The translations under genes and the position numbers were made by a program. A model generated the notes under the pieces. It had not been told where the DNA came from, searched no databases, and saw only the letters and a program-made list of their open reading frames with translations. Of a stretch of DNA of 7,686 nucleotides, positions 99 to 6,489 are shown piece by piece. Location: the IMG/VR virus record IMGVR_UViG_2740892258_000007. One strand, written 5' to 3'. Source of the stretch: a virus. Lineage: Duplodnaviria; Heunggongvirae; Uroviricota; Caudoviricetes. Each line of letters opens with the position of its first letter. The stretch's first letter is position 1.

Positions 99-851
99 AT
101 GAACCTTGAAGCCTTACCAAAATATTACTCCCCAAAATCTCCAAAATTGAGCGATGACGCACCGGCGACAGGCTCAGGTGGTTTAACGATTACGGATGTG
201 ATGGCTGCGCAGGGGATGGTGCAGTCGAAAGCACCGCTTGGGTTTGCCTTATTCCTGGCAAAAGTTGGTGTTCAGGATCCTCAGTTTGCGATTGAAGGTC
301 TGCTCAATTACGCGATGGCAATGGATAACCCGACATTGAACAAATTGAGTGAAGAAACCCGGTTACAGATCATCCCTTACCTTGTGAGTTTTGCCTTTGC
401 TGATTATTCCAGGTCTGCGGCAAGTAAGGCTCGCTGTGAGCATTGTGCTGGTACTGGATTTCATAGTGTATTGCGCGAAGTGGTGAAACACTCCAGAAGC
501 GGGGAATCTGTTATCAAGGAAGAGTGGGTGAAGGAATTATGTCAGCATTGCCATGGTAAGGGAGAAGTCAGCACGGCTTGCAGAGGGTGTAAGGGTAAAG
601 GCATTGTCCTGGATGAAAAAAGAACCCGGCTTCATGGCGCGCCTGTTTATAAGATTTGTGGGCGTTGCAATGGAAACCGGTTTAGTCGTTTACCGACCAC
701 ACTGGCACGACGTCATGTCCAGAAGCTGGTACCAGACCTGACTGATTATCAGTGGTACAAAGGATATGCAGACGTCATTGATAAACTGGTAACAAAGTGC
801 TGGCAGGAAGAAGCATTCGCTGAAGCACAATTGAGAAAGGTGACGAGATAA
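99..851 (+). CDS. Q: Late-gene antitermination protein Q (250 aa, QuuQ-like as recalled) with four CxxCxGxG zinc-finger repeats
   Basis: GGAG 8 nt upstream of ATG 99. Four repeats CEHCAGTG, CQHCHGKG, CRGCKGKG, CGRCNGNR. Sits immediately upstream of a promoter plus intrinsic terminator (883-989) followed by morons and lysis genes, the canonical Q/pR'/tR' layout. N-terminus MNLEALPKYYSPKSPKLSDD matches my recollection of E. coli prophage Q homologs; not search-verified. Confidence 0.65.
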   Translation: MNLEALPKYYSPKSPKLSDDAPATGSGGLTITDVMAAQGMVQSKAPLGFALFLAKVGVQDPQFAIEGLLNYAMAMDNPTLNKLSEETRLQIIPYLVSFAFADYSRSAASKARCEHCAGTGFHSVLREVVKHSRSGESVIKEEWVKELCQHCHGKGEVSTACRGCKGKGIVLDEKRTRLHGAPVYKICGRCNGNRFSRLPTTLARRHVQKLVPDLTDYQWYKGYADVIDKLVTKCWQEEAFAEAQLRKVTR

Positions 852-882: not shown

Positions 883-911
883 TTGCATTTCTCAAAAAAT
901 ATGGATAAGAT
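883..911 (+). promoter_or_regulatory. pR'-like late promoter candidate (-35 TTGCAT 883-888, 17-bp spacer, -10 TAAGAT 906-911)
   Basis: Sigma70-like hexamers with 17-bp spacing, 30 bp after the Q stop and about 45 bp before a strong intrinsic terminator, as expected for pR' with its Q-utilisation region. Confidence 0.4.
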
Positions 912-957
912 TTTCCCAACGATGGGCTTTGTATGTCTACCGTTGATGAGTCCAAGA

Positions 958-989
958 ACCCGCCGCCGAGCGGGTTAAATTATTTTTTC
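958..989 (+). terminator. tR'-like intrinsic terminator
   Basis: Stem aacccgc (958-964) / gcgggtt (971-977), loop cgccga, followed by aaattatttttt. Confidence 0.6.
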
Positions 990-1005: not shown

Positions 1006-1536
1006 ATGTTATACCGAGATCTTTTGCCTATTTTCTCAGAAAGACCCATATTTAAAGCTCCTGAGGCTGAAAGAATACTTCGTGAGCAATATTCTATCGC
1101 CGCCCCCACTCCTGTAATTCAGGAGATTTATTATGGATTGGCAGGTTATGACAGATTTCAGGAGCTTTATGGGGATCTTAATATTGACCAAATCGAATGG
1201 AAATTGATTGAACTTCCCACTAAAAATTTTTTAACTATCGGGGATAATGCTACTTACCCTGATTTTTTGCATGAGGTCGTTGAAGATTTCACAACCCGTA
1301 AAGGCGATGTATTTATGGATGATGAAATAAAAGCGCATTGGTGTAATTTTGGCACATGGTGTGAACCTCCATTTTTTATAGATCGAGCTTTGCTGAAAAG
1401 TAATACAACAGGGCTTCATTTAATGGAAGGGCATACAAGAGTTGGAACCCTGTTAGGGGCAGTTAAGTATAACTTCGTTAAGCTTGCTAATACTCATAAA
1501 ATTTATTATGCGCAAGCAAAAGAATGTATTAAATAA
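1006..1536 (+). CDS. Hypothetical 176-aa protein, AT-rich moron; possible ParB/Srx-like fold (weak)
   Basis: GGGGA 5 nt before ATG 1006; uninterrupted ORF; clearly more AT-rich than the flanking Q and methyltransferase genes; followed by an intrinsic terminator. Segment PPFFID...TGLHLMEGHTRVGTLLGAV loosely resembles the strand-DGHxR-helix core of ParB/sulfiredoxin domains. Confidence 0.55.
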   Translation: MLYRDLLPIFSERPIFKAPEAERILREQYSIAAPTPVIQEIYYGLAGYDRFQELYGDLNIDQIEWKLIELPTKNFLTIGDNATYPDFLHEVVEDFTTRKGDVFMDDEIKAHWCNFGTWCEPPFFIDRALLKSNTTGLHLMEGHTRVGTLLGAVKYNFVKLANTHKIYYAQAKECIK

Positions 1537-1572
1537 GTTGAGTGAAATTACTGTTTTTTTTTAACAATACTT

Positions 1573-1595
1573 ACCGCGTTCTCGCGGTTTTTTTA
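1573..1595 (+). terminator. Intrinsic terminator after the 176-aa ORF
   Basis: accgcg (1573-1578) / cgcggt (1583-1588), loop ttct, then a run of 7 T. Confidence 0.6.
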
Positions 1596-1717
1596 TAAAT
1601 TAAACATTGGTGCAGTACGGTAAACACGCTGGTGGTCGTGAATACTGACTTTTTATCTTGCTGGCTTTTTAGACAAGAGTTATTGGTATGTCATGTTAAC
1701 CATGAAGGTAAAAAGAC

Positions 1718-1912
1718 ATGCTAAAACAGCAAGATATGACAGAAACGGCGAAAGTTGTTTTTAATGAATTAAACGGCAAACCGGCAACAGTCGGGGAGAT
1801 AGCACAAAACACATACCTTTCACGCGAACGCTGTCAGTTAATACTGACCCAGCTGGTTATGGCGGGGCTGGCAGATTACCAGTTCGGCTGTTACAGACGC
1901 CTTCAGCAATGA
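1718..1912 (+). CDS. Small winged-helix DNA-binding protein, PapI/FaeA-like (64 aa)
   Basis: Pattern ...NELNGKPATVGEIAQNTYLSRERCQLILTQLVMAGLADY aligns by eye with the PapI core (...[32 protein letters not shown]...). Size typical of the family. AAGG about 10 nt upstream of the ATG. Confidence 0.45.
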   Translation: MLKQQDMTETAKVVFNELNGKPATVGEIAQNTYLSRERCQLILTQLVMAGLADYQFGCYRRLQQ

Positions 1913-2061
1913 AGGGCTTTTAATTTGTGAAAATGGGCGGCTGGTGGGTGTTGGTAGCACCTGCCAGCCATTCGCTCATGCTTACTGGTCACAAGCGAAC
2001 CATGGCCCACTGCTTTAGCGCAAAAGCAGAGTGAGCCTACCAGAGTTACGCTTACTGATCC

Positions 2062-3123
2062 ATGAAAAACACTGTAAAAATAAACAGTATTGATTTAATC
2101 AACGCTGATTGCCTGCATTTTATTCAGTCCCTGCCTGATGATTCCATTGACCTGATTGTTACCGATCCGCCTTACTTCAAGGTGAAACCCAACGGTTGGG
2201 ACAATCAGTGGAAAGGGGACGAAGATTACCTTAAGTGGCTGGACCACTGTCTGGCCCAGTTCTGGCGGGTGTTGAAACCTGCCGGAAGCCTTTACCTGTT
2301 CTGTGGGCATCGCCTGGCATCTGATATTGAGATCATGATGCGTGAACGTTTCAACGTGCTTAACCATATCATCTGGGCGAAGCCGTCCGGACGTTGGAAT
2401 GGGTGTAATAAAGAAAGTCTGCGCGCATATTTTCCTGCCACAGAGCGCGTTCTGTTTGCTGAACATTACCGGGGGCCATATCGCGGCAAAAGTGACGGCT
2501 ATGTGGCAAAAGAAAGGGAACTCAAACAGCACATAATGGCACCGCTGATATCGTATTTCAGGGATGCTCGTGCCGAACTGGGTATAACGGCAAAACAAAT
2601 TGCCGAAGCCACAGGTAAGAAAAATATGGTTTCCCACTGGTTTGGTGCCAGTCAGTGGCAGTTGCCGAATGAGGCTGACTACCGGAAGTTACAGGCACTG
2701 TTTTCCCGTATAGCGGCAGAGAAGTTTCAGGAACAACAACTGGAACAACCACACCACCAGTTGGTGGCATCTTATGATTCACTGAATCGCAAATATTCTG
2801 AATTGCTGGATGAGTTTAAATCTCTCCGGCGCTATTTCTCCGTATCAGTCTCCGTGCCTTATACCGATGTCTGGATGCATAAACCCGTTCAGTTCTACCC
2901 GGGTAAACATCCGTGTGAGAAACCGGCGGATATGCTCAGGCAAATAATCAATGCCAGTAGTCGACCCGGCGATCTGGTTGCTGATTTCTTTATGGGATCC
3001 GGTTCCACAATAAAAGCAGCAATGGCGCTGGGGCGTCGGGCGTTAGGTGTTGAGCTTGAGACAGAGCGGTTTAATCAGACCATCCAGGAAATCAGTATGT
3101 TATCAGCAAATACAATTTTGTGA
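2062..3123 (+). CDS. Orphan DNA methyltransferase, beta-class N6-adenine/N4-cytosine family (DPPY motif, probably N6-adenine), 353 aa
   Basis: Motif IV DPPY near the N-terminus (LIVTDPPYF) and AdoMet motif I near the C-terminus (DFFMGSGST), the circular permutation typical of beta-class enzymes. No restriction endonuclease partner in the window. Weak SD. Confidence 0.85.
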   Translation: MKNTVKINSIDLINADCLHFIQSLPDDSIDLIVTDPPYFKVKPNGWDNQWKGDEDYLKWLDHCLAQFWRVLKPAGSLYLFCGHRLASDIEIMMRERFNVLNHIIWAKPSGRWNGCNKESLRAYFPATERVLFAEHYRGPYRGKSDGYVAKERELKQHIMAPLISYFRDARAELGITAKQIAEATGKKNMVSHWFGASQWQLPNEADYRKLQALFSRIAAEKFQEQQLEQPHHQLVASYDSLNRKYSELLDEFKSLRRYFSVSVSVPYTDVWMHKPVQFYPGKHPCEKPADMLRQIINASSRPGDLVADFFMGSGSTIKAAMALGRRALGVELETERFNQTIQEISMLSANTIL

Positions 3124-3365
3124 ATTAATTCAATTATTGGTGGGATGTCTGTGCCGTATAATGATTACAGATACAGTGTATCCTGCAATGCAGCAGGGCT
3201 GATGTGGTGGGTTGTACATAGCCTGCAAAGGATTGGCTTCATTAATTCATCGTTGATACAAGCGAGTCACGGTTGACCACGCCAACGGCTCATCGGTAAA
3301 AATCCGACACCGTGTCTTCTTAACTCACTTATTGTTTCCACCCATGTTTTTGGATACCTGCTGTA

Positions 3366-3404
3366 GCTGTCAGATTAGCGCGATAATCTGACAGCTTTTT
3401 TTTT
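3366..3404 (+). terminator. Strong intrinsic terminator
   Basis: 11-bp perfect stem gctgtcagatt (3366-3376) / aatctgacagc (3385-3395), loop agcgcgat, followed by 9 T. Confidence 0.65.
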
Positions 3405-3565
3405 ACAACGAATCCTTCTGATCTGCTTTTGCGGGGCTTTTTTGTATCCGCTCCATGCCCGGCGTATAAGCGGAGGTTGGTCAGTTTTCTAAAAATTGAA
3501 ATACCTCACAATTCAGCCAGTTAATGGTTGTTTGTCTGGCGAAGAGTTTGTAAATAAAAAAACGC

Positions 3566-3720
3566 ATGGTGAATCCCCCTAAGCGGCGGGGCGAATCAGC
3601 AGTCAGTTCTGGGATAATCGCGGGTTCGTATGCTGATGCCGGACTCACCGGGAGGCACCCGGCACCATGCATCATGGTCATCCCCTTGTATGATACCCCT
3701 CTCCGGAGGGGTATTTTTTG
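3566..3720 (+). ncRNA. Candidate structured small RNA (~155 nt) ending at an intrinsic terminator
   Basis: GC-rich block with no credible ORF. Long-range closing stem gcatggtg (3564-3571) / caccatgc (3665-3672); internal hairpin ccggg-aggca-cccgg; terminator with 9-bp stem atacccctc (3693-3701) / gaggggtat (3706-3714) plus T5. Weak promoter candidate upstream (-35 TTGTCT 3532-3537, -10 TAAAAA 3555-3560). Confidence 0.3.
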
Positions 3721-3721
3721 G

Positions 3722-3790
3722 ATAAAAAAGCCCGCGCTGGGAGGCACGGGCGGCAAGGAATAAAACGTGAAGAAATTTTCACAGGCGCAT
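3722..3790 (-). ncRNA. Candidate short minus-strand transcript (~60 nt) with its own intrinsic terminator
   Basis: On the minus strand: -35 TTGCAA, 18-bp spacer, -10 TATTAT (reverse complement of about 3786-3820), then hairpin gtgaa/ttcac (3776-3791), then terminator hairpin gcccg...cgggc (3730-3754) followed by 6 U (forward A-run 3724-3729). It lies back-to-back with the plus-strand terminator at 3693-3720. Confidence 0.25.
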
Positions 3791-3988
3791 AATAATCCGA
3801 TGTTGCCAGATTTTGCAACTGCATCATCTGGTTATTATGTGAGCTGGAAAATCAGATTCTGTATGGACTGAAGCCATGCTGTTATTTAGGGCCAAAGAGC
3901 TGGCTTTTTCCCGCCTTCTCTCCAGTAACGATTAATGAGAAAAGAATGAAATGCTTTTCCTGGGGAGGAGGGCAGTAGAAAAAAGAAC

Positions 3989-4043: not shown

Positions 4044-4151
4044 TATGGTTCTTCATGAAATAAGAATGTTACGCGGTATTTTTAATGAAAATGATAATTA
4101 TTGTCAATTGGTTGTGCGTATTTTTTCATACATGACTGGTAAAGGTGATTC

Positions 4152-4187
4152 AGGCCATCAGAGTTTTGCTGATGGCCTTTTTTCTTT
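4152..4187 (+). terminator. Intrinsic terminator about 30 nt upstream of the pinholin start
   Basis: 10-bp stem aggccatcag (4152-4161) / ctgatggcct (4169-4178), loop agttttg, T-run 4178-4183. Confidence 0.55.
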
Positions 4188-4216: not shown

Positions 4217-4432
4217 ATGTATCAGATGGAAAAAATATCAACAGGCATTGCCTACGGCACCTCCGCAGGCAGTGCTGGCTACTGGTTTTTACAATGGCTT
4301 GATCAGGTTAGTCCGTCTCAGTGGGCTGCGATTGGTGTACTGGGAAGTCTGGTTCTGGGCTTTCTGACTTATCTGACGAATCTGTACTTCAAAATCAGAG
4401 AAGACAGAAGAAAGGCTGCGAGAGGAGAGTAA
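4217..4432 (+). CDS. S: Pinholin, phage 21 S21 family (71 aa, dual-start MYQMEK)
   Basis: Translation [71 protein letters not shown] is near-identical to S21 as I recall it. Two transmembrane domains, charged C-terminus, Met1/Met4 dual start. The longer listed ORF 4145-4432 is an upstream extension across the terminator hairpin and is not the real start. Confidence 0.85.
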
Positions 4433-4436
4433 TATA

Positions 4437-4781
4437 ATGGTCCAAAACTATGAAATGATTGTGAAAGGGATCCGCAATTTTGAGAATAAAGTTACGGTAA
4501 CTTTAGCATTACAGGACAAAGAACGCTTTGACGGTGAAATTTTTGACCTGGACATCTCGCTGGACCGTGTTGAAGGTGCCGCGCTGGAGTTTTATGAGGC
4601 AGCAGCCAGAAGGAGCATCAGACAGGTCTTCCTGGATGTTGCTGCCGGGTTATGTGGAGGGGATGAGCAGTCGCCGGAAAAGCGCCCCATAATTTTAGAG
4701 GCGCAGAGTGTGTGGATAACCTACAAAGGAAAACTGCCGGGAAGAATTACTGGTTCACTGAAGACTCCGCCGAAATGGTAA
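4437..4781 (+). CDS. orfA, hypothetical 114-aa acidic soluble protein in the slot normally occupied by the endolysin
   Basis: SD GAGGAGAG inside the 3' end of S, 7 nt before ATG 4437, so translationally coupled to the pinholin. A second copy (5356-5612) differs at about 12 nt with only 3 amino-acid changes, indicating purifying selection. No family recognised. Confidence 0.6.
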   Translation: MVQNYEMIVKGIRNFENKVTVTLALQDKERFDGEIFDLDISLDRVEGAALEFYEAAARRSIRQVFLDVAAGLCGGDEQSPEKRPIILEAQSVWITYKGKLPGRITGSLKTPPKW

Positions 4782-5019
4782 TTTCACCAGCATATTTTTC
4801 CTCCAGTAATACCGCCAGCCACTTGAAAGAATTTTGTTGTTGCTGGGACCATTTGGGATTGATTGATTCAAGCTGGAGCGATGCCAGTGTTGGTTGCATT
4901 TGTTCCTTGGGAATTGAGAATGCCAGATATGAAAATGCGACAGCAAGGGCATTTACATCATCCCGAAGCCTGGAAATGCAGTCGAGCAACTCCTGTAGAG
5001 AAATGGTGCTATTGTCCAT
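4747..5019 (-). CDS. orfB, hypothetical 90-aa protein, convergent with and 3'-overlapping orfA by 35 bp
   Basis: Minus-strand ATG at 5019-5017 preceded by AGAGAGGA with 7-nt spacing; an intact paralogue with the same RBS at 5578-5850. Helical-looking N-terminus (MDNSTISLQELLDCISRLRDDVNAL). The ORF track's 92-aa version starts at an upstream TTG; ATG is preferred. Confidence 0.45.
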   Translation of the reverse strand: MDNSTISLQELLDCISRLRDDVNALAVAFSYLAFSIPKEQMQPTLASLQLESINPKWSQQQQNSFKWLAVLLEEKYAGEITISAESSVNQ

Positions 5020-5124
5020 AAACAATCCTCTCTATTGTATTTAACTATTCCTTGCCTGATTCAACAGGCCGGGACAGATAAACATATCCAGGGTTCAGAA
5101 ACCGATAAATCCTGATAAATATCC

Positions 5125-5355
5125 ATGAACGCAAAAATCAGATACAGCCTGTCGGCTACTGTACTAGTGCTGATTGGTGCAGGCGCGTCTGCTCCTCAAA
5201 TACTTGACCAGTTTCTGGACGAAAAAGAAGGTAACCACACAACGGCATACCGTGATGGTTCCGGCATCTGGACCATCTGTCGGGGTGCCACGATGGTGGA
5301 TGGAAAACCCGTTTTTCCCGGTATGAAACTGTCGAAGGAAAAATGCGACCAGGTC
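5125..5355 (+). pseudogene. Endolysin 5' fragment R' (first 77 codons: SAR domain and E-D-T catalytic region), then out of frame into the orfA copy
   Basis: Codons 1-77 match the R N-terminus (5 amino-acid differences); after KCDQV the frame runs into orfA-derived sequence, giving a 55-aa junk tail and a stop at 5521-5523. Confidence 0.75.
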
Positions 5356-5612
5356 GCTTTGACGGTGAAATTTTTGACCTGGACATCTCGCTGGACCGTG
5401 TTGAAGGTGCTGCGCTGGAGTTTTATGAGGCAGCGGCCAGAAGGAGCATCAGACAGGTCTTCCTGGATGTCGCTGCCGGGTTATGTGAAGGGGATGAGCA
5501 GTCGCCGGAAAAGCGCCCCGTAATTTTAGAGGCGCAGAATGTATGGATAACCTACAAAGGAAAGCTACCGGGAAGGATTACTGGTTCCCTGAAGACTCCG
5601 CCGAAATGGTAG
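5343..5612 (+). CDS. orfA second copy, lacking the first 29 codons; possible re-initiation at a fortuitous ATG 5343 (AAGGA 5 nt upstream, within the R' fragment)
   Basis: In-frame homolog of orfA residues 30-114 with 3 amino-acid changes (G to E, I to V, S to N) and about 8 synonymous changes. Whether it is expressed is unknown. Confidence 0.35.
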   Translation: MRPGRFDGEIFDLDISLDRVEGAALEFYEAAARRSIRQVFLDVAAGLCEGDEQSPEKRPVILEAQNVWITYKGKLPGRITGSLKTPPKW

Positions 5613-6186
5613 TTTTGCCAGCATAATTTTCTTCCAGCAATGCCGCCAGCCACTTGAAAGAATTTTGTTGTTCCTGGGACCATTTGGGGTTGCGTGATTC
5701 AAAATGAATGGATGCCAGCGTTGGCAGCATTTGCTCCCTGGGAATTGATAAGGCCAGATGTGAAAATGCAACAGTGAGGGCATTTACATCATCCCGAAGC
5801 CTGGAAATGCAGTCGAGCAACTCCTGTAGAGAAATGGTGCTATTGTCCATAAATAATCCTCTTGATTGTCTTTACCTTTTCCCCGCCTGATTCAACAGGC
5901 CGGGACAGATAAACATATCCAGGGTTCAGAAACCGATAAATCCTGATAAATATCCATGAACGCAAAAATCAAATACGGCCTGTCAGCTGCAGTTCTGGCG
6001 CTGATTGGAGCAGGCGCATCAGCTCCTCAGATACTTGACCAGTTTCTGGATGAAAAAGAGGGTAACCACACTACGGCATACCGCGATGGTTCCGGCAACT
6101 GGACCATCTGTCGGGGGGCCACGATGGTGGATGGAAAACCCGTTTTTCCCGGTATGAAACTGTCGAAGGAAAAATGCGACCAGGTC
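5356..6186. repeat. Tandem duplication, copy 2 (831 bp)
   Basis: See copy 1; ends inside the intact endolysin gene at codon 77. Confidence 0.85.
5578..5850 (-). CDS. orfB second copy (90 aa), about 15 amino-acid differences from copy 1, concentrated in the middle and C-terminal half
   Basis: Intact ORF with conserved RBS AGAGGA and ATG at 5850-5848; N-terminal 25 residues identical to copy 1. Confidence 0.45.
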   Translation of the reverse strand: MDNSTISLQELLDCISRLRDDVNALTVAFSHLALSIPREQMLPTLASIHFESRNPKWSQEQQNSFKWLAALLEENYAGKTTISAESSGNQ

Positions 6187-6489
6187 AACGCCATTGAGCG
6201 TGATAAGGCGCTGGCATGGGTGGAGAAAAACATCAAAGTGCCATTGAGCGAACCCCAGAAAGCGGGGATCGCGTCATTCTGTCCGTACAACATTGGTCCC
6301 GGTAAGTGTTTCCCGTCGACGTTTTATAAACGAATTAATGCAGGTGATCGCAGGGGAGCGTGTGAGGCGATTCGCTGGTGGATTAAGGACGGTGGCAGAG
6401 ACTGCCGTATTCGTTCAAACAACTGCTACGGTCAGGTATCCCGTCGTGACCAGGAGAGCGCGCTGGCGTGCTGGGGTATCGACAGATAA
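5956..6489 (+). CDS. R: SAR endolysin (phage lysozyme with N-terminal signal-anchor-release domain), 177 aa
   Basis: Weakly hydrophobic Gly/Ala-rich N-terminus LSAAVLALIGAGASAP; catalytic triad spacing E-x8-D-x5-T in EGNHTTAYRDGSGNWT. Pinholin plus SAR endolysin is the established phage 21-type pairing. No SD before the ATG. Confidence 0.85.
   Translation: MNAKIKYGLSAAVLALIGAGASAPQILDQFLDEKEGNHTTAYRDGSGNWTICRGATMVDGKPVFPGMKLSKEKCDQVNAIERDKALAWVEKNIKVPLSEPQKAGIASFCPYNIGPGKCFPSTFYKRINAGDRRGACEAIRWWIKDGGRDCRIRSNNCYGQVSRRDQESALACWGIDR

Follow-up and report, generated by a model that had tools for sequence, protein, structure and literature searches.

The stretch of DNA analyzed here (7,686 nucleotides; IMG/VR virus record IMGVR_UViG_2740892258_000007, Caudoviricetes; hereafter the window, meaning the whole of that stretch) is part of a lambda-like prophage. 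From its letters alone, a G+C-rich block had been picked out as a candidate structured plus-strand small RNA (sRNA) belonging to no recognized RNA family; we refer to this as the original prediction. The composition is as described (62.6% G+C against 40-43% in the flanks), and the block is a real structured small RNA gene, but its family is known. A scan of the whole window with Rfam 15 matches STnc100 (RF02076) at 3535-3723 on the plus strand with 114.5 bits (E = 3.3e-25; the gathering score is 47 bits), covering positions 1-206 of the 206 in the model, and our own covariance model (R1) gives the same copy 96.4 bits. The element is a member of STnc100 and not a new find. It has the helices, the prophage late-region context and the promoter/terminator layout in common with the family, and no feature of the window copy excludes membership.

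The RNA gene sits in the moron slot of a lambdoid prophage of extraintestinal and avian pathogenic Escherichia coli (ExPEC and APEC), with Q, pR', tR' and cargo genes on one side and the holin on the other (Table 1). The 401 bases around it recur with 100% identity in 122 complete E. coli genomes, including many of ExPEC or APEC strains (IHE3034, APEC O18 and PMV-1, for example), and more distant copies occur in 437 of 5426 genomes.

Table 1. Features of the window, with the parts of the STnc100-type RNA first.
Feature	Coordinates	Strand	Details
STnc100-family sRNA	3564-3719	+	~156 nt; 5' domain 3564-3670, tail 3671-3691, terminator 3692-3719
Putative sigma70 promoter of the sRNA	3528-3556	+	-35 TTGTTT 3528-3533, 17-nt spacer, -10 TAAATA 3551-3556; predicted start ~G3564
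P1 closing stem, 8 bp	3564-3571 / 3663-3670	+	5' arm GCAUGGUG, 3' arm CACCAUGC; double-sided changes in 8 of 8 pairs
P2 hairpin	3575-3590	+	CCCCC 3575-3579, loop UAAGC, GG-C-GGG 3585-3590, bulge 3587
X, 5' strand of pseudoknot	3595-3601	+	AUCAGCA; partner is the P4 loop UGCUGAU 3631-3637
Variable region P3	3602-3621	+	followed by near-invariant GCG 3620-3622; length and sequence differ widely among homologues
P4 hairpin	3622-3646	+	GGGUUCG 3622-3628 / CGGACUC 3640-3646; 11-nt loop with X' 3631-3637; double-sided changes in 7 of 7 pairs
P5 hairpin	3648-3662	+	CCGGG 3648-3652, AGGCA, CCCGG 3658-3662; 99% paired; near-invariant motif GGGAGGCA
Variable single-stranded tail	3671-3691	+	AUCAUGGUCAUCCCCUUGUAU; candidate seed / Hfq-contact region
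Rho-independent terminator	3692-3719	+	GATACCCCTC 3692-3701, TCCG loop, GAGGGGTATT 3706-3715, T-run 3714-3719; 10-bp stem; terminator scan, fold and Rfam alignment
Partner sRNA gene	3722-3818	-	promoter TTGCAA-18-TATTAT 3818-3789; ~60-nt RNA from ~3782 to 3722
Antiterminator Q	99-851	+	Pfam PF03589
Late promoter pR'	884-912	+	TTGCAT-17-TAAGAT-TTTCCC-AACGATGGG; comparison with lambda pR'
Pause element	919-927	+	AACGATGGG, identical to that of lambda
tR' terminator hairpin	957-976	+	plus T-run; terminator scan
Moron cargo	1006-3435	+	two open reading frames of unknown function, DNA methylase 2062-3123, terminators 3365-3396 and 3422-3435
Class II holin, first lysis gene downstream	4217-4432	+	Pfam PF04971; RefSeq annotation of identical locus

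Read directly, the DNA has GCATGGTG at 3564-3571, where the original prediction had placed the 5' arm of a long-range closing stem, and the complement CACCATGC at 3663-3670. The pairing proposed for the two arms holds, whereas the position given for the second (3665-3672) was shifted by 2 nt. The local hairpin CCGGG-AGGCA-CCCGG, here P5, is present as described, and it directly adjoins and stacks on the 3' arm of P1; the terminator with a T-run that closes the block is likewise found, in the sequence and by terminator scan. The window copy has a short P3 and a tail sequence of its own. Folding of the single sequence gives a minimum free energy of -67.2 kcal/mol and recovers the closing stem, the hairpin and the terminator, but 6 of 200 shuffled sequences fold equally well (z = -2.25). 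Because the fold energy only modestly beats the shuffles, thermodynamics alone is weak evidence for the structure.

To gather homologues, viral contigs and one genome for each species were scanned with patterns; a covariance model was built from 61 representatives, and 110 matches (105 distinct) from 90 sources were then re-aligned. Standard pairs fill 91.5% of the pair cells in the 105 distinct copies, as against 43-48% when the partners are slid by 1-3 columns, and compensatory, double-sided changes are seen in 21 of the 25 pairs; none of 500 shuffles attains the observed values. In the closing stem the co-variation is of the kind GC 73/AU 19 and UA 41/CG 16. The original prediction had proposed a covariance-model scan and comparative folding, and held that a lack of covariation would tell against it; both have now been run, and covariation is abundant.

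Two of the helices behave differently, P2 and P5 being nearly constant among the homologues. This invariance is in part a matter of ascertainment, because the search patterns fixed parts of both. P2 is paired in 99.6%, and its register is backed by the rare variants CUUUC/GAAAG and UCUCC/GGAGA; its bulge base is not constant (A60/U22/C27, the window copy having C). The GGAGG of P5 is retained in 12 of the 13 copies that were found by the model only. C3621 is invariant in alignment A1. A tertiary contact between the GC of the P2 loop and the GCG at 3620-3622 was considered and dropped, as Klebsiella-type copies have A at the G position with no compensation.

The strand that follows P2 (X) is complementary to the loop of P4 (X'), and since this pairing crosses P4 it forms a pseudoknot, one that is missing from the nested consensus structure line printed by cmscan for STnc100. 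The linker between P2 and X varies from 0 to 8 nt, which makes column-wise counts on alignments A1 and A2 unusable and is the reason why a register-free test was used: the best duplex was sought in each of 95 distinct copies, and the loops were permuted among copies. The longest complementary run between X and X' has a mean of 6.38, compared with 4.79 for permuted loops (maximum 5.13 in 1000 permutations), runs of at least 6 bp are found in 80% of copies versus 24% after permutation, and the mean duplex energy is -9.2 versus -5.9 +/- 0.23 kcal/mol. There are 75 distinct compensatory versions of the pairing, among them CCAGUC/GACUGG, UUUGAUC/GAUCAAA, AAUGACUG/UGGUCAUU and ACUGGAUA/UAUCCAGU. No paper reporting the STnc100 pseudoknot was found in the searchable literature.

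The putative promoter of the window copy has the same length and layout as that of the copy in phage 933W (TTGCCT-18-TAAAAA), and when 96 distinct upstream regions from many genera are compared, the end of the best sigma70-like match is most often 4-7 nt upstream of P1. For PasD1, a relative in enteropathogenic E. coli (EPEC), the 5' end is the first G of GCAUGGUG, downstream of TTGACT-18-TAAAAA; this end is a published estimate based on RNA-seq, and the size is consistent with Northern blotting. The original proposal that the closing stem coincides with the start predicted from a weak promoter is plausible, given the conserved promoter placement and the PasD1 5' end at P1. Upstream, the two terminators that end the cargo isolate the RNA gene from its neighbors. 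At its 3' end the window copy has the hallmark of Hfq-dependent sRNAs, a terminator hairpin with 6 U preceded by a single-stranded tail, and the homologues are similar: their tails are variable and AU/U-rich, with a median of 26 nt from P1 to the terminator, and their predicted RNA lengths are 137-218 nt. A strict perfect-stem finder identifies terminators in 55 of the 105 copies, the remainder probably having imperfect stems. The reverse complement of the window tail resembles a ribosome-binding site (AAGGGGAUGACCAUG); a search for targets of the tail within the window gave nothing convincing, only a weak match inside ydfR.

Several members of the family have been detected as transcripts. In E. 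coli EDL933, 11 STnc100 copies are transcribed and one of them, STnc100_4, has been confirmed by Northern blot (PMC5331693), and RpoD peaks from chromatin immunoprecipitation with exonuclease treatment (ChIP-exo) have been reported at STnc100 copies of Salmonella. The copy just downstream of stx2B overlaps EcOnc27/sRNA103, which was confirmed by Northern blot and by Hfq crosslinking and analysis of cDNA (CRAC) and which raised fimZ and espA when over-expressed (PMC12711010, PMC7873438). EcOnc27/sRNA103, in Stx2 phages, is of the same family as the window RNA (the 933W copy scores 207.7 bits), is Hfq-bound and Northern-verified, occupies the same slot and is likewise convergent with a short minus-strand sRNA. 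Its identity to the window copy is ~72%, in the core only; the tail and terminator differ, and it has AsxR as partner and stx2 as upstream cargo where the window has another short RNA and a methylase.

The second published relative is the pair PasD1 and PasD2 (EcOnc13) of EPEC E2348/69, traced by a 2026 preprint to a common ancestor with STnc100. Both are Northern-positive and Hfq-dependent, and sequencing of ligated RNA pairs (RIL-seq) gave targets and supports a seed, UGUGAG, in the tail just upstream of the terminator (PMC8550237). In a CsrA RIL-seq study of EPEC, the pair formed by PasD2 and the yjbJ 3' untranslated region made up ~20% of all chimeric reads. PasD1 and PasD2 share with the window copy P1, P2, P4, the pseudoknot (in the version AAUGAUC/GAUCAUU) and the GGGAGGC motif, as well as a 5' end at the first base of P1, a seed in the tail before the terminator and a position between Q and the (esterase-)holin genes. 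They fall below the Rfam threshold (37.7 and 41.4 bits), with P5 truncated and the P2 loop shortened, yet GCGGGAGGCGCC is retained in spite of the truncated P5. The Hfq and CsrA data are those of PasD. Together, Rfam membership, covariation, promoter placement and these published data on family members support the structured plus-strand sRNA of ~150 nt that had been proposed.

Two variants downstream of stx2B reported as predictive of hemolytic uremic syndrome (HUS), +90 T/C and a T deletion at +103 (PMC12711010), map in 933W (locus L003, ~4503-4517) to the extended -10 element TGtTAAAAA (4503-4511) and to the base just before the STnc100 start, taking the end of stxB2 as 4414 and the first base of P1 as 4518, with an accuracy of ~+/- 1-2 nt. 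By this mapping, the variants hit the promoter of the Stx2-phage copy rather than the body of the RNA.

On the minus strand a second, short sRNA gene converges on the STnc100 terminator. The promoter and the terminator (3751-3730) given by scans delimit an RNA with a 5' hairpin and a linker upstream of the terminator, and this RNA folds well (-21.1 kcal/mol, z = -5.95). Conservation of the partner, with its -10 element, extends over 13 phage loci, and its match among the EPEC RIL-seq candidates is the unnamed E2348C_1409.E2348C_1408.IGR, for which the seed CUUGCG has been proposed. The layout of this dyad is that described by Tree et al. 2014 (PMC4104026), who found convergent pairs of Hfq-binding sRNAs between moron coding sequences and the lysis region in at least 8 Sakai prophages. 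AsxR and AgvB (RF02703 and RF02702) are likewise ~60 nt long, convergent with an STnc100-type gene in the moron slot and provided with a terminator and poly-U, but their sequence differs from that of the window partner. An identification with either was rejected, there being no Rfam match to them in the window, even at E<=10, nor in three further loci (L004-L006); as a control, the equivalent place in 933W is recognized as AsxR with 88 bits. By our scan, a minus-strand terminator lies downstream in 9 of 55 copies only, the inspected E. coli phage copies among them.

In 18 species representatives the STnc100 fold is found outside any prophage (loci L130, L137-L140, L144, L147, L152, L164, L168, L180, L183-L185, L188, L190, L200 and L208). 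The carriers are Klebsiella michiganensis, oxytoca, grimontii and indica, Raoultella, several Kosakonia, Enterobacter spp. and Citrobacter amalonaticus, and the layout is a divergent luxR-family gene, the fold, a kdgM porin gene and a periplasmic pectate lyase gene, with the fold on the strand of kdgM and 75-217 nt upstream of it. In K. michiganensis (L152), the one copy of these that was scanned with Rfam, the STnc100 score is 85.7 bits; the fold lies at 1843-1973 and kdgM at 2062-2763. P4 and the pseudoknot co-vary within this subfamily too. Between the fold and kdgM there is no U-tract terminator, but a conserved CUGC...GCAG hairpin and a conserved stretch that runs into the Shine-Dalgarno sequence; by these features, the kdgM leader appears to begin with the fold, which would thus be a 5' leader of the kdgM-pectate lyase operon as a whole. 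Like the pseudoknot, the subfamily appears to be unreported in the searchable literature. Upstream of the fold, the Klebsiella-type loci have a conserved motif that resembles an inverted repeat, TGTAAAAGT.ATTTTCA.

Multiple copies are a further feature of the family. A Leclercia genome has four copies directly upstream of holin-lysozyme-Rz-terminase, and two Superficieibacter genomes have five copies each. Arrays of 3-5 STnc100-type genes within 1-4 kb, each gene with a promoter-like element and terminator of its own, were noted at L141 (3968-7918), L198, L160, L197 (5466-6548), L155 and L143; the L197 array is directly upstream of holin-lysozyme-Rz-terminase and has an isrI-like RNA (Rfam, 53 bits) between copies, and that of L141 is among insertion sequence elements.

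In other phages the RNA stays in this slot while Q protein and cargo change. The order is Q-pR'-tR'-tRNAs-stx2AB-[RNA]-nanS-p-holin in 933W, Q-tRNAs-[RNA]-holin in PhiR49_2 and Q-[RNA]-esterase-holin in PhiR12_1, and PhiR5_2 has two copies of the RNA. At least 6 Q types were recognized upstream of homologues with a small protein panel, and a holin or lysozyme homologue lies downstream on the same strand in 49 of the 117 loci with enough sequence. In the window, the pR' and tR' found directly after Q are lambda-like: lambda pR' reads TTGACT-17-TAAATT-TGACTC-AACGATGGG, and the spacing and pause element are the same. Because of this, the RNA is assigned to the moron slot and is not taken for the late leader. 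The segment 884-988 (+) would itself yield a leader RNA of ~65 nt, the counterpart of lambda 6S RNA and StxS. Two of the cargo reading frames, 1006-1536 (176 amino acids) and 1718-1912 (64 amino acids), both on the plus strand, have no Pfam match, and a terminator-like bidirectional hairpin lies at 1573-1588.

Downstream of the holin come genes for DUF1327/YdfR, lysozyme and Rz, from Pfam and the RefSeq annotation of the identical locus. The lysis region at 4437-6489 carries an apparent tandem duplication or recombination of ~830 bp: there is a second, N-terminally truncated copy of YdfR/DUF1327 (5343-5612), a lysozyme gene at 5125-5523 that matches the intact one (5956-6489) in the first ~77 codons only, and an antisense reading frame in two copies (4747-5025 and 5578-5850). 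In IHE3034, whose locus is identical in other respects, these lysis-region genes are present once each. At 4087-4183 (+) there is a sub-threshold Rfam match to SgrS (24.8 bits against 37), mainly on account of a strong terminator hairpin at 4152-4178 plus T-run just upstream of the holin start; this hairpin is probably only a terminator, to be read through by Q-modified polymerase.

Starting from the observed family membership, compensated helices, moron-slot context and dyad, we read the element as an independently transcribed Hfq-type trans-acting sRNA of ~156 nt, whose 5' domain is conserved and whose seed tail varies, and put the probability of this reading at roughly 0.7. To judge from the comparative data and the relatives, the lysogen would transcribe the gene from a sigma70 promoter of its own, with +1 at the first base of P1 and the 3' end at its own terminator; during lytic growth, Q-modified polymerase coming from pR' would read through the RNA gene. 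The product would have two modules. One is the conserved 5' domain of 107 nt, a multi-helix junction (P1, P2, P4 and P5) that the pseudoknot would lock. With its first nucleotide already paired, this domain has no exposed 5' end, and the RNA should thereby be protected from the 5'-end-dependent decay known for RNase E and RppH. The other, the variable single-stranded tail of ~21 nt with the terminator hairpin and U-tail, is the kind of module that usually binds Hfq and contains the seed. Acting in trans like EcOnc27/sRNA103 and PasD1/2, the 3' module would be bound by Hfq and the tail would pair with host or phage mRNAs, and therefore the same scaffold could carry different seeds in different phages. 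The 5' domain probably serves stability, protein recruitment or both. That it is conserved, contains a pseudoknot and has been reused to lead mRNAs suggests that it has a specific partner. The best candidate is CsrA, of which PasD2 is a dominant ligand, given also the GGA within the near-invariant GGGAGGCA; we regard CsrA as a lead, not a result.

Several points weigh against this reading. The tail of the window variant is unlike those of EcOnc27 and PasD, and the promoter is weak by consensus and was missed by a strict scan. The ascertainment in P2 and P5 is relieved only in part by the 13 pattern-free copies and the Rfam consensus. The window copy has a single GGA motif, because its P2 bulge is C and not A. 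A mere scaffold or stabilizer would not need a pseudoknotted fold with near-invariant sequence, and the fact that the same fold heads a kdgM leader without a terminator argues that the 5' domain has an autonomous function beyond the seed model.

The alternative to be taken most seriously overlaps the trans-acting sRNA rather than excluding it. On this account, which we consider possible but the less probable of the two, the 5' domain is the functional core, an autonomous module that binds a protein, most likely CsrA by way of the GGGAGGCA hairpin, and acts as its sponge or guide, and the tail only targets it. PasD2, with the same fold, is in the most abundant CsrA ternary complex of EPEC, GGAGG is retained where P5 is truncated (PasD) or its stem altered, the fold is far more conserved than the tail, and it heads the kdgM-pectate lyase operons; we count here too that in related bacteria pectinases are known to be under Rsm/CsrA control (PMC6418279). 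The mechanism in the CsrA paper, however, was demonstrated for PasE, not PasD. The CsrA motif of the SELEX (in vitro selection) type is an A(N)GGA loop, which GGGAGGCA is not, and the second GGA, that of the P2 bulge, varies among copies and is absent from the window copy. A small-molecule aptamer, perhaps for something related to sugar acids, that controls the downstream terminator or mRNA would also account for a complex pseudoknotted fold with near-invariant junction nucleotides, for the leaders in 18 species and for the position upstream of the sialate esterase gene nanS-p in Stx and EPEC phages. Such a sensor is improbable: the phage copies precede strong terminators that are unrelated in sequence and for which no antiterminator alternative is conserved, what follows them is a convergent gene and not a regulated reading frame, the leader context is limited to the kdgM subfamily, and no known riboswitch model matches in the Rfam scan of the window. 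It is slightly easier to credit, and still unlikely, that the element works in cis in the late operon, insulating the lysis genes from cargo transcription or providing a site of mRNA processing or stability, with the free sRNA as a by-product. It is always just upstream of the (esterase-)holin cassette, after cargo genes with their own promoters, and there are terminators in both directions, four of them between methylase and holin. A terminator alone would insulate, though, and the conserved promoter starting exactly at P1, the co-varying pseudoknotted domain, the arrays of up to 5 copies each with promoter and terminator, and the Hfq and RIL-seq interactions of the relatives are all left unexplained.

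Three other identities are contradicted more directly. A degenerate tRNA-like gene, related to the tRNA genes that these phages often have just upstream (~70 nt away in PhiR49_2), is suggested by the 8-bp closing stem stacked on a 5-bp hairpin, reminiscent of an acceptor/T-arm stack, by a hairpin 3 nt after the 5' arm and by GGGUUCG, which resembles the start of a T-arm; but the P5 loop has 5 nt and no T-loop motif, the hypervariable P3 provides no conserved anticodon-like arm, and the pseudoknot is of a different topology. ARAGORN reports 0 genes, in agreement with the lack of a tRNA-like T-loop noted originally, there is no Rfam tRNA or tmRNA match, and we reject the idea as very improbable. 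Still less can be said for a Q-dependent late leader ended at tR'. Lambda 6S RNA and StxS are likewise short terminated transcripts from the lambdoid late region, made constitutively, and StxS is described in a review as an Hfq-binding sRNA; the window RNA lies between Q and holin at a distance from holin similar to that of lambda tR', and AACGCATGG (3560-3568) is superficially similar to lambda AACGATGGG. These RNAs are of another locus and origin, STnc100 having a separate promoter and no sequence or model similarity to them: the lambda region matches neither Rfam STnc100 nor our own model. At least 6 unrelated Q types accompany the same RNA, and in 933W it is downstream of stx with pR' and tR' annotated elsewhere. 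What decides the matter is the genuine pR' with AACGATGGG at 884-927, 2.6 kb upstream, which has its own terminator at 957-976, and the late leader is rejected with hardly any doubt. The same verdict falls on coding by the 65-amino-acid reading frame at 3566-3763 (+) or the 91-amino-acid one at 3481-3756 (-). Both exist, a hypothetical protein is annotated there in two identical genomes (RefSeq), and ribosome footprints are seen on some EDL933 copies, but for the 65-amino-acid frame neither start codon nor reading frame is conserved: the ATG, which lies inside the stem, is replaced by GTG or another codon in 86 of 105 copies, core lengths modulo 3 are spread 24/39/42, a stop occurs within 40 codons in 63 of 105, and the substitutions are compensatory for base pairing.

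For the window itself, the result mainly confirms that genuine structured sRNA genes can be spotted from raw sequence. The practical interest of the family is that copies adjoin the Shiga toxin genes and that promoter variants have been reported as HUS predictors (PMC12711010). The pseudoknot and the kdgM-leader subfamily suggest that the 5' domain has a role in addition to that of seed carrier. We put forward, as a tentative proposal, that the 107-nt 5' domain of STnc100 and PasD is an autonomous pseudoknotted module, perhaps a high-affinity platform for a protein such as CsrA or, less likely, a ligand sensor, used in sRNAs and kdgM leaders alike. If that is true, members of the family would be 'programmable' scaffolds that guide proteins, not base-pairing sRNAs of the ordinary kind, and the module would have been reused both in prophage sRNAs with interchangeable seed tails, in arrays of up to five, and in the kdgM leaders of Klebsiella, Kosakonia, Raoultella and Citrobacter.

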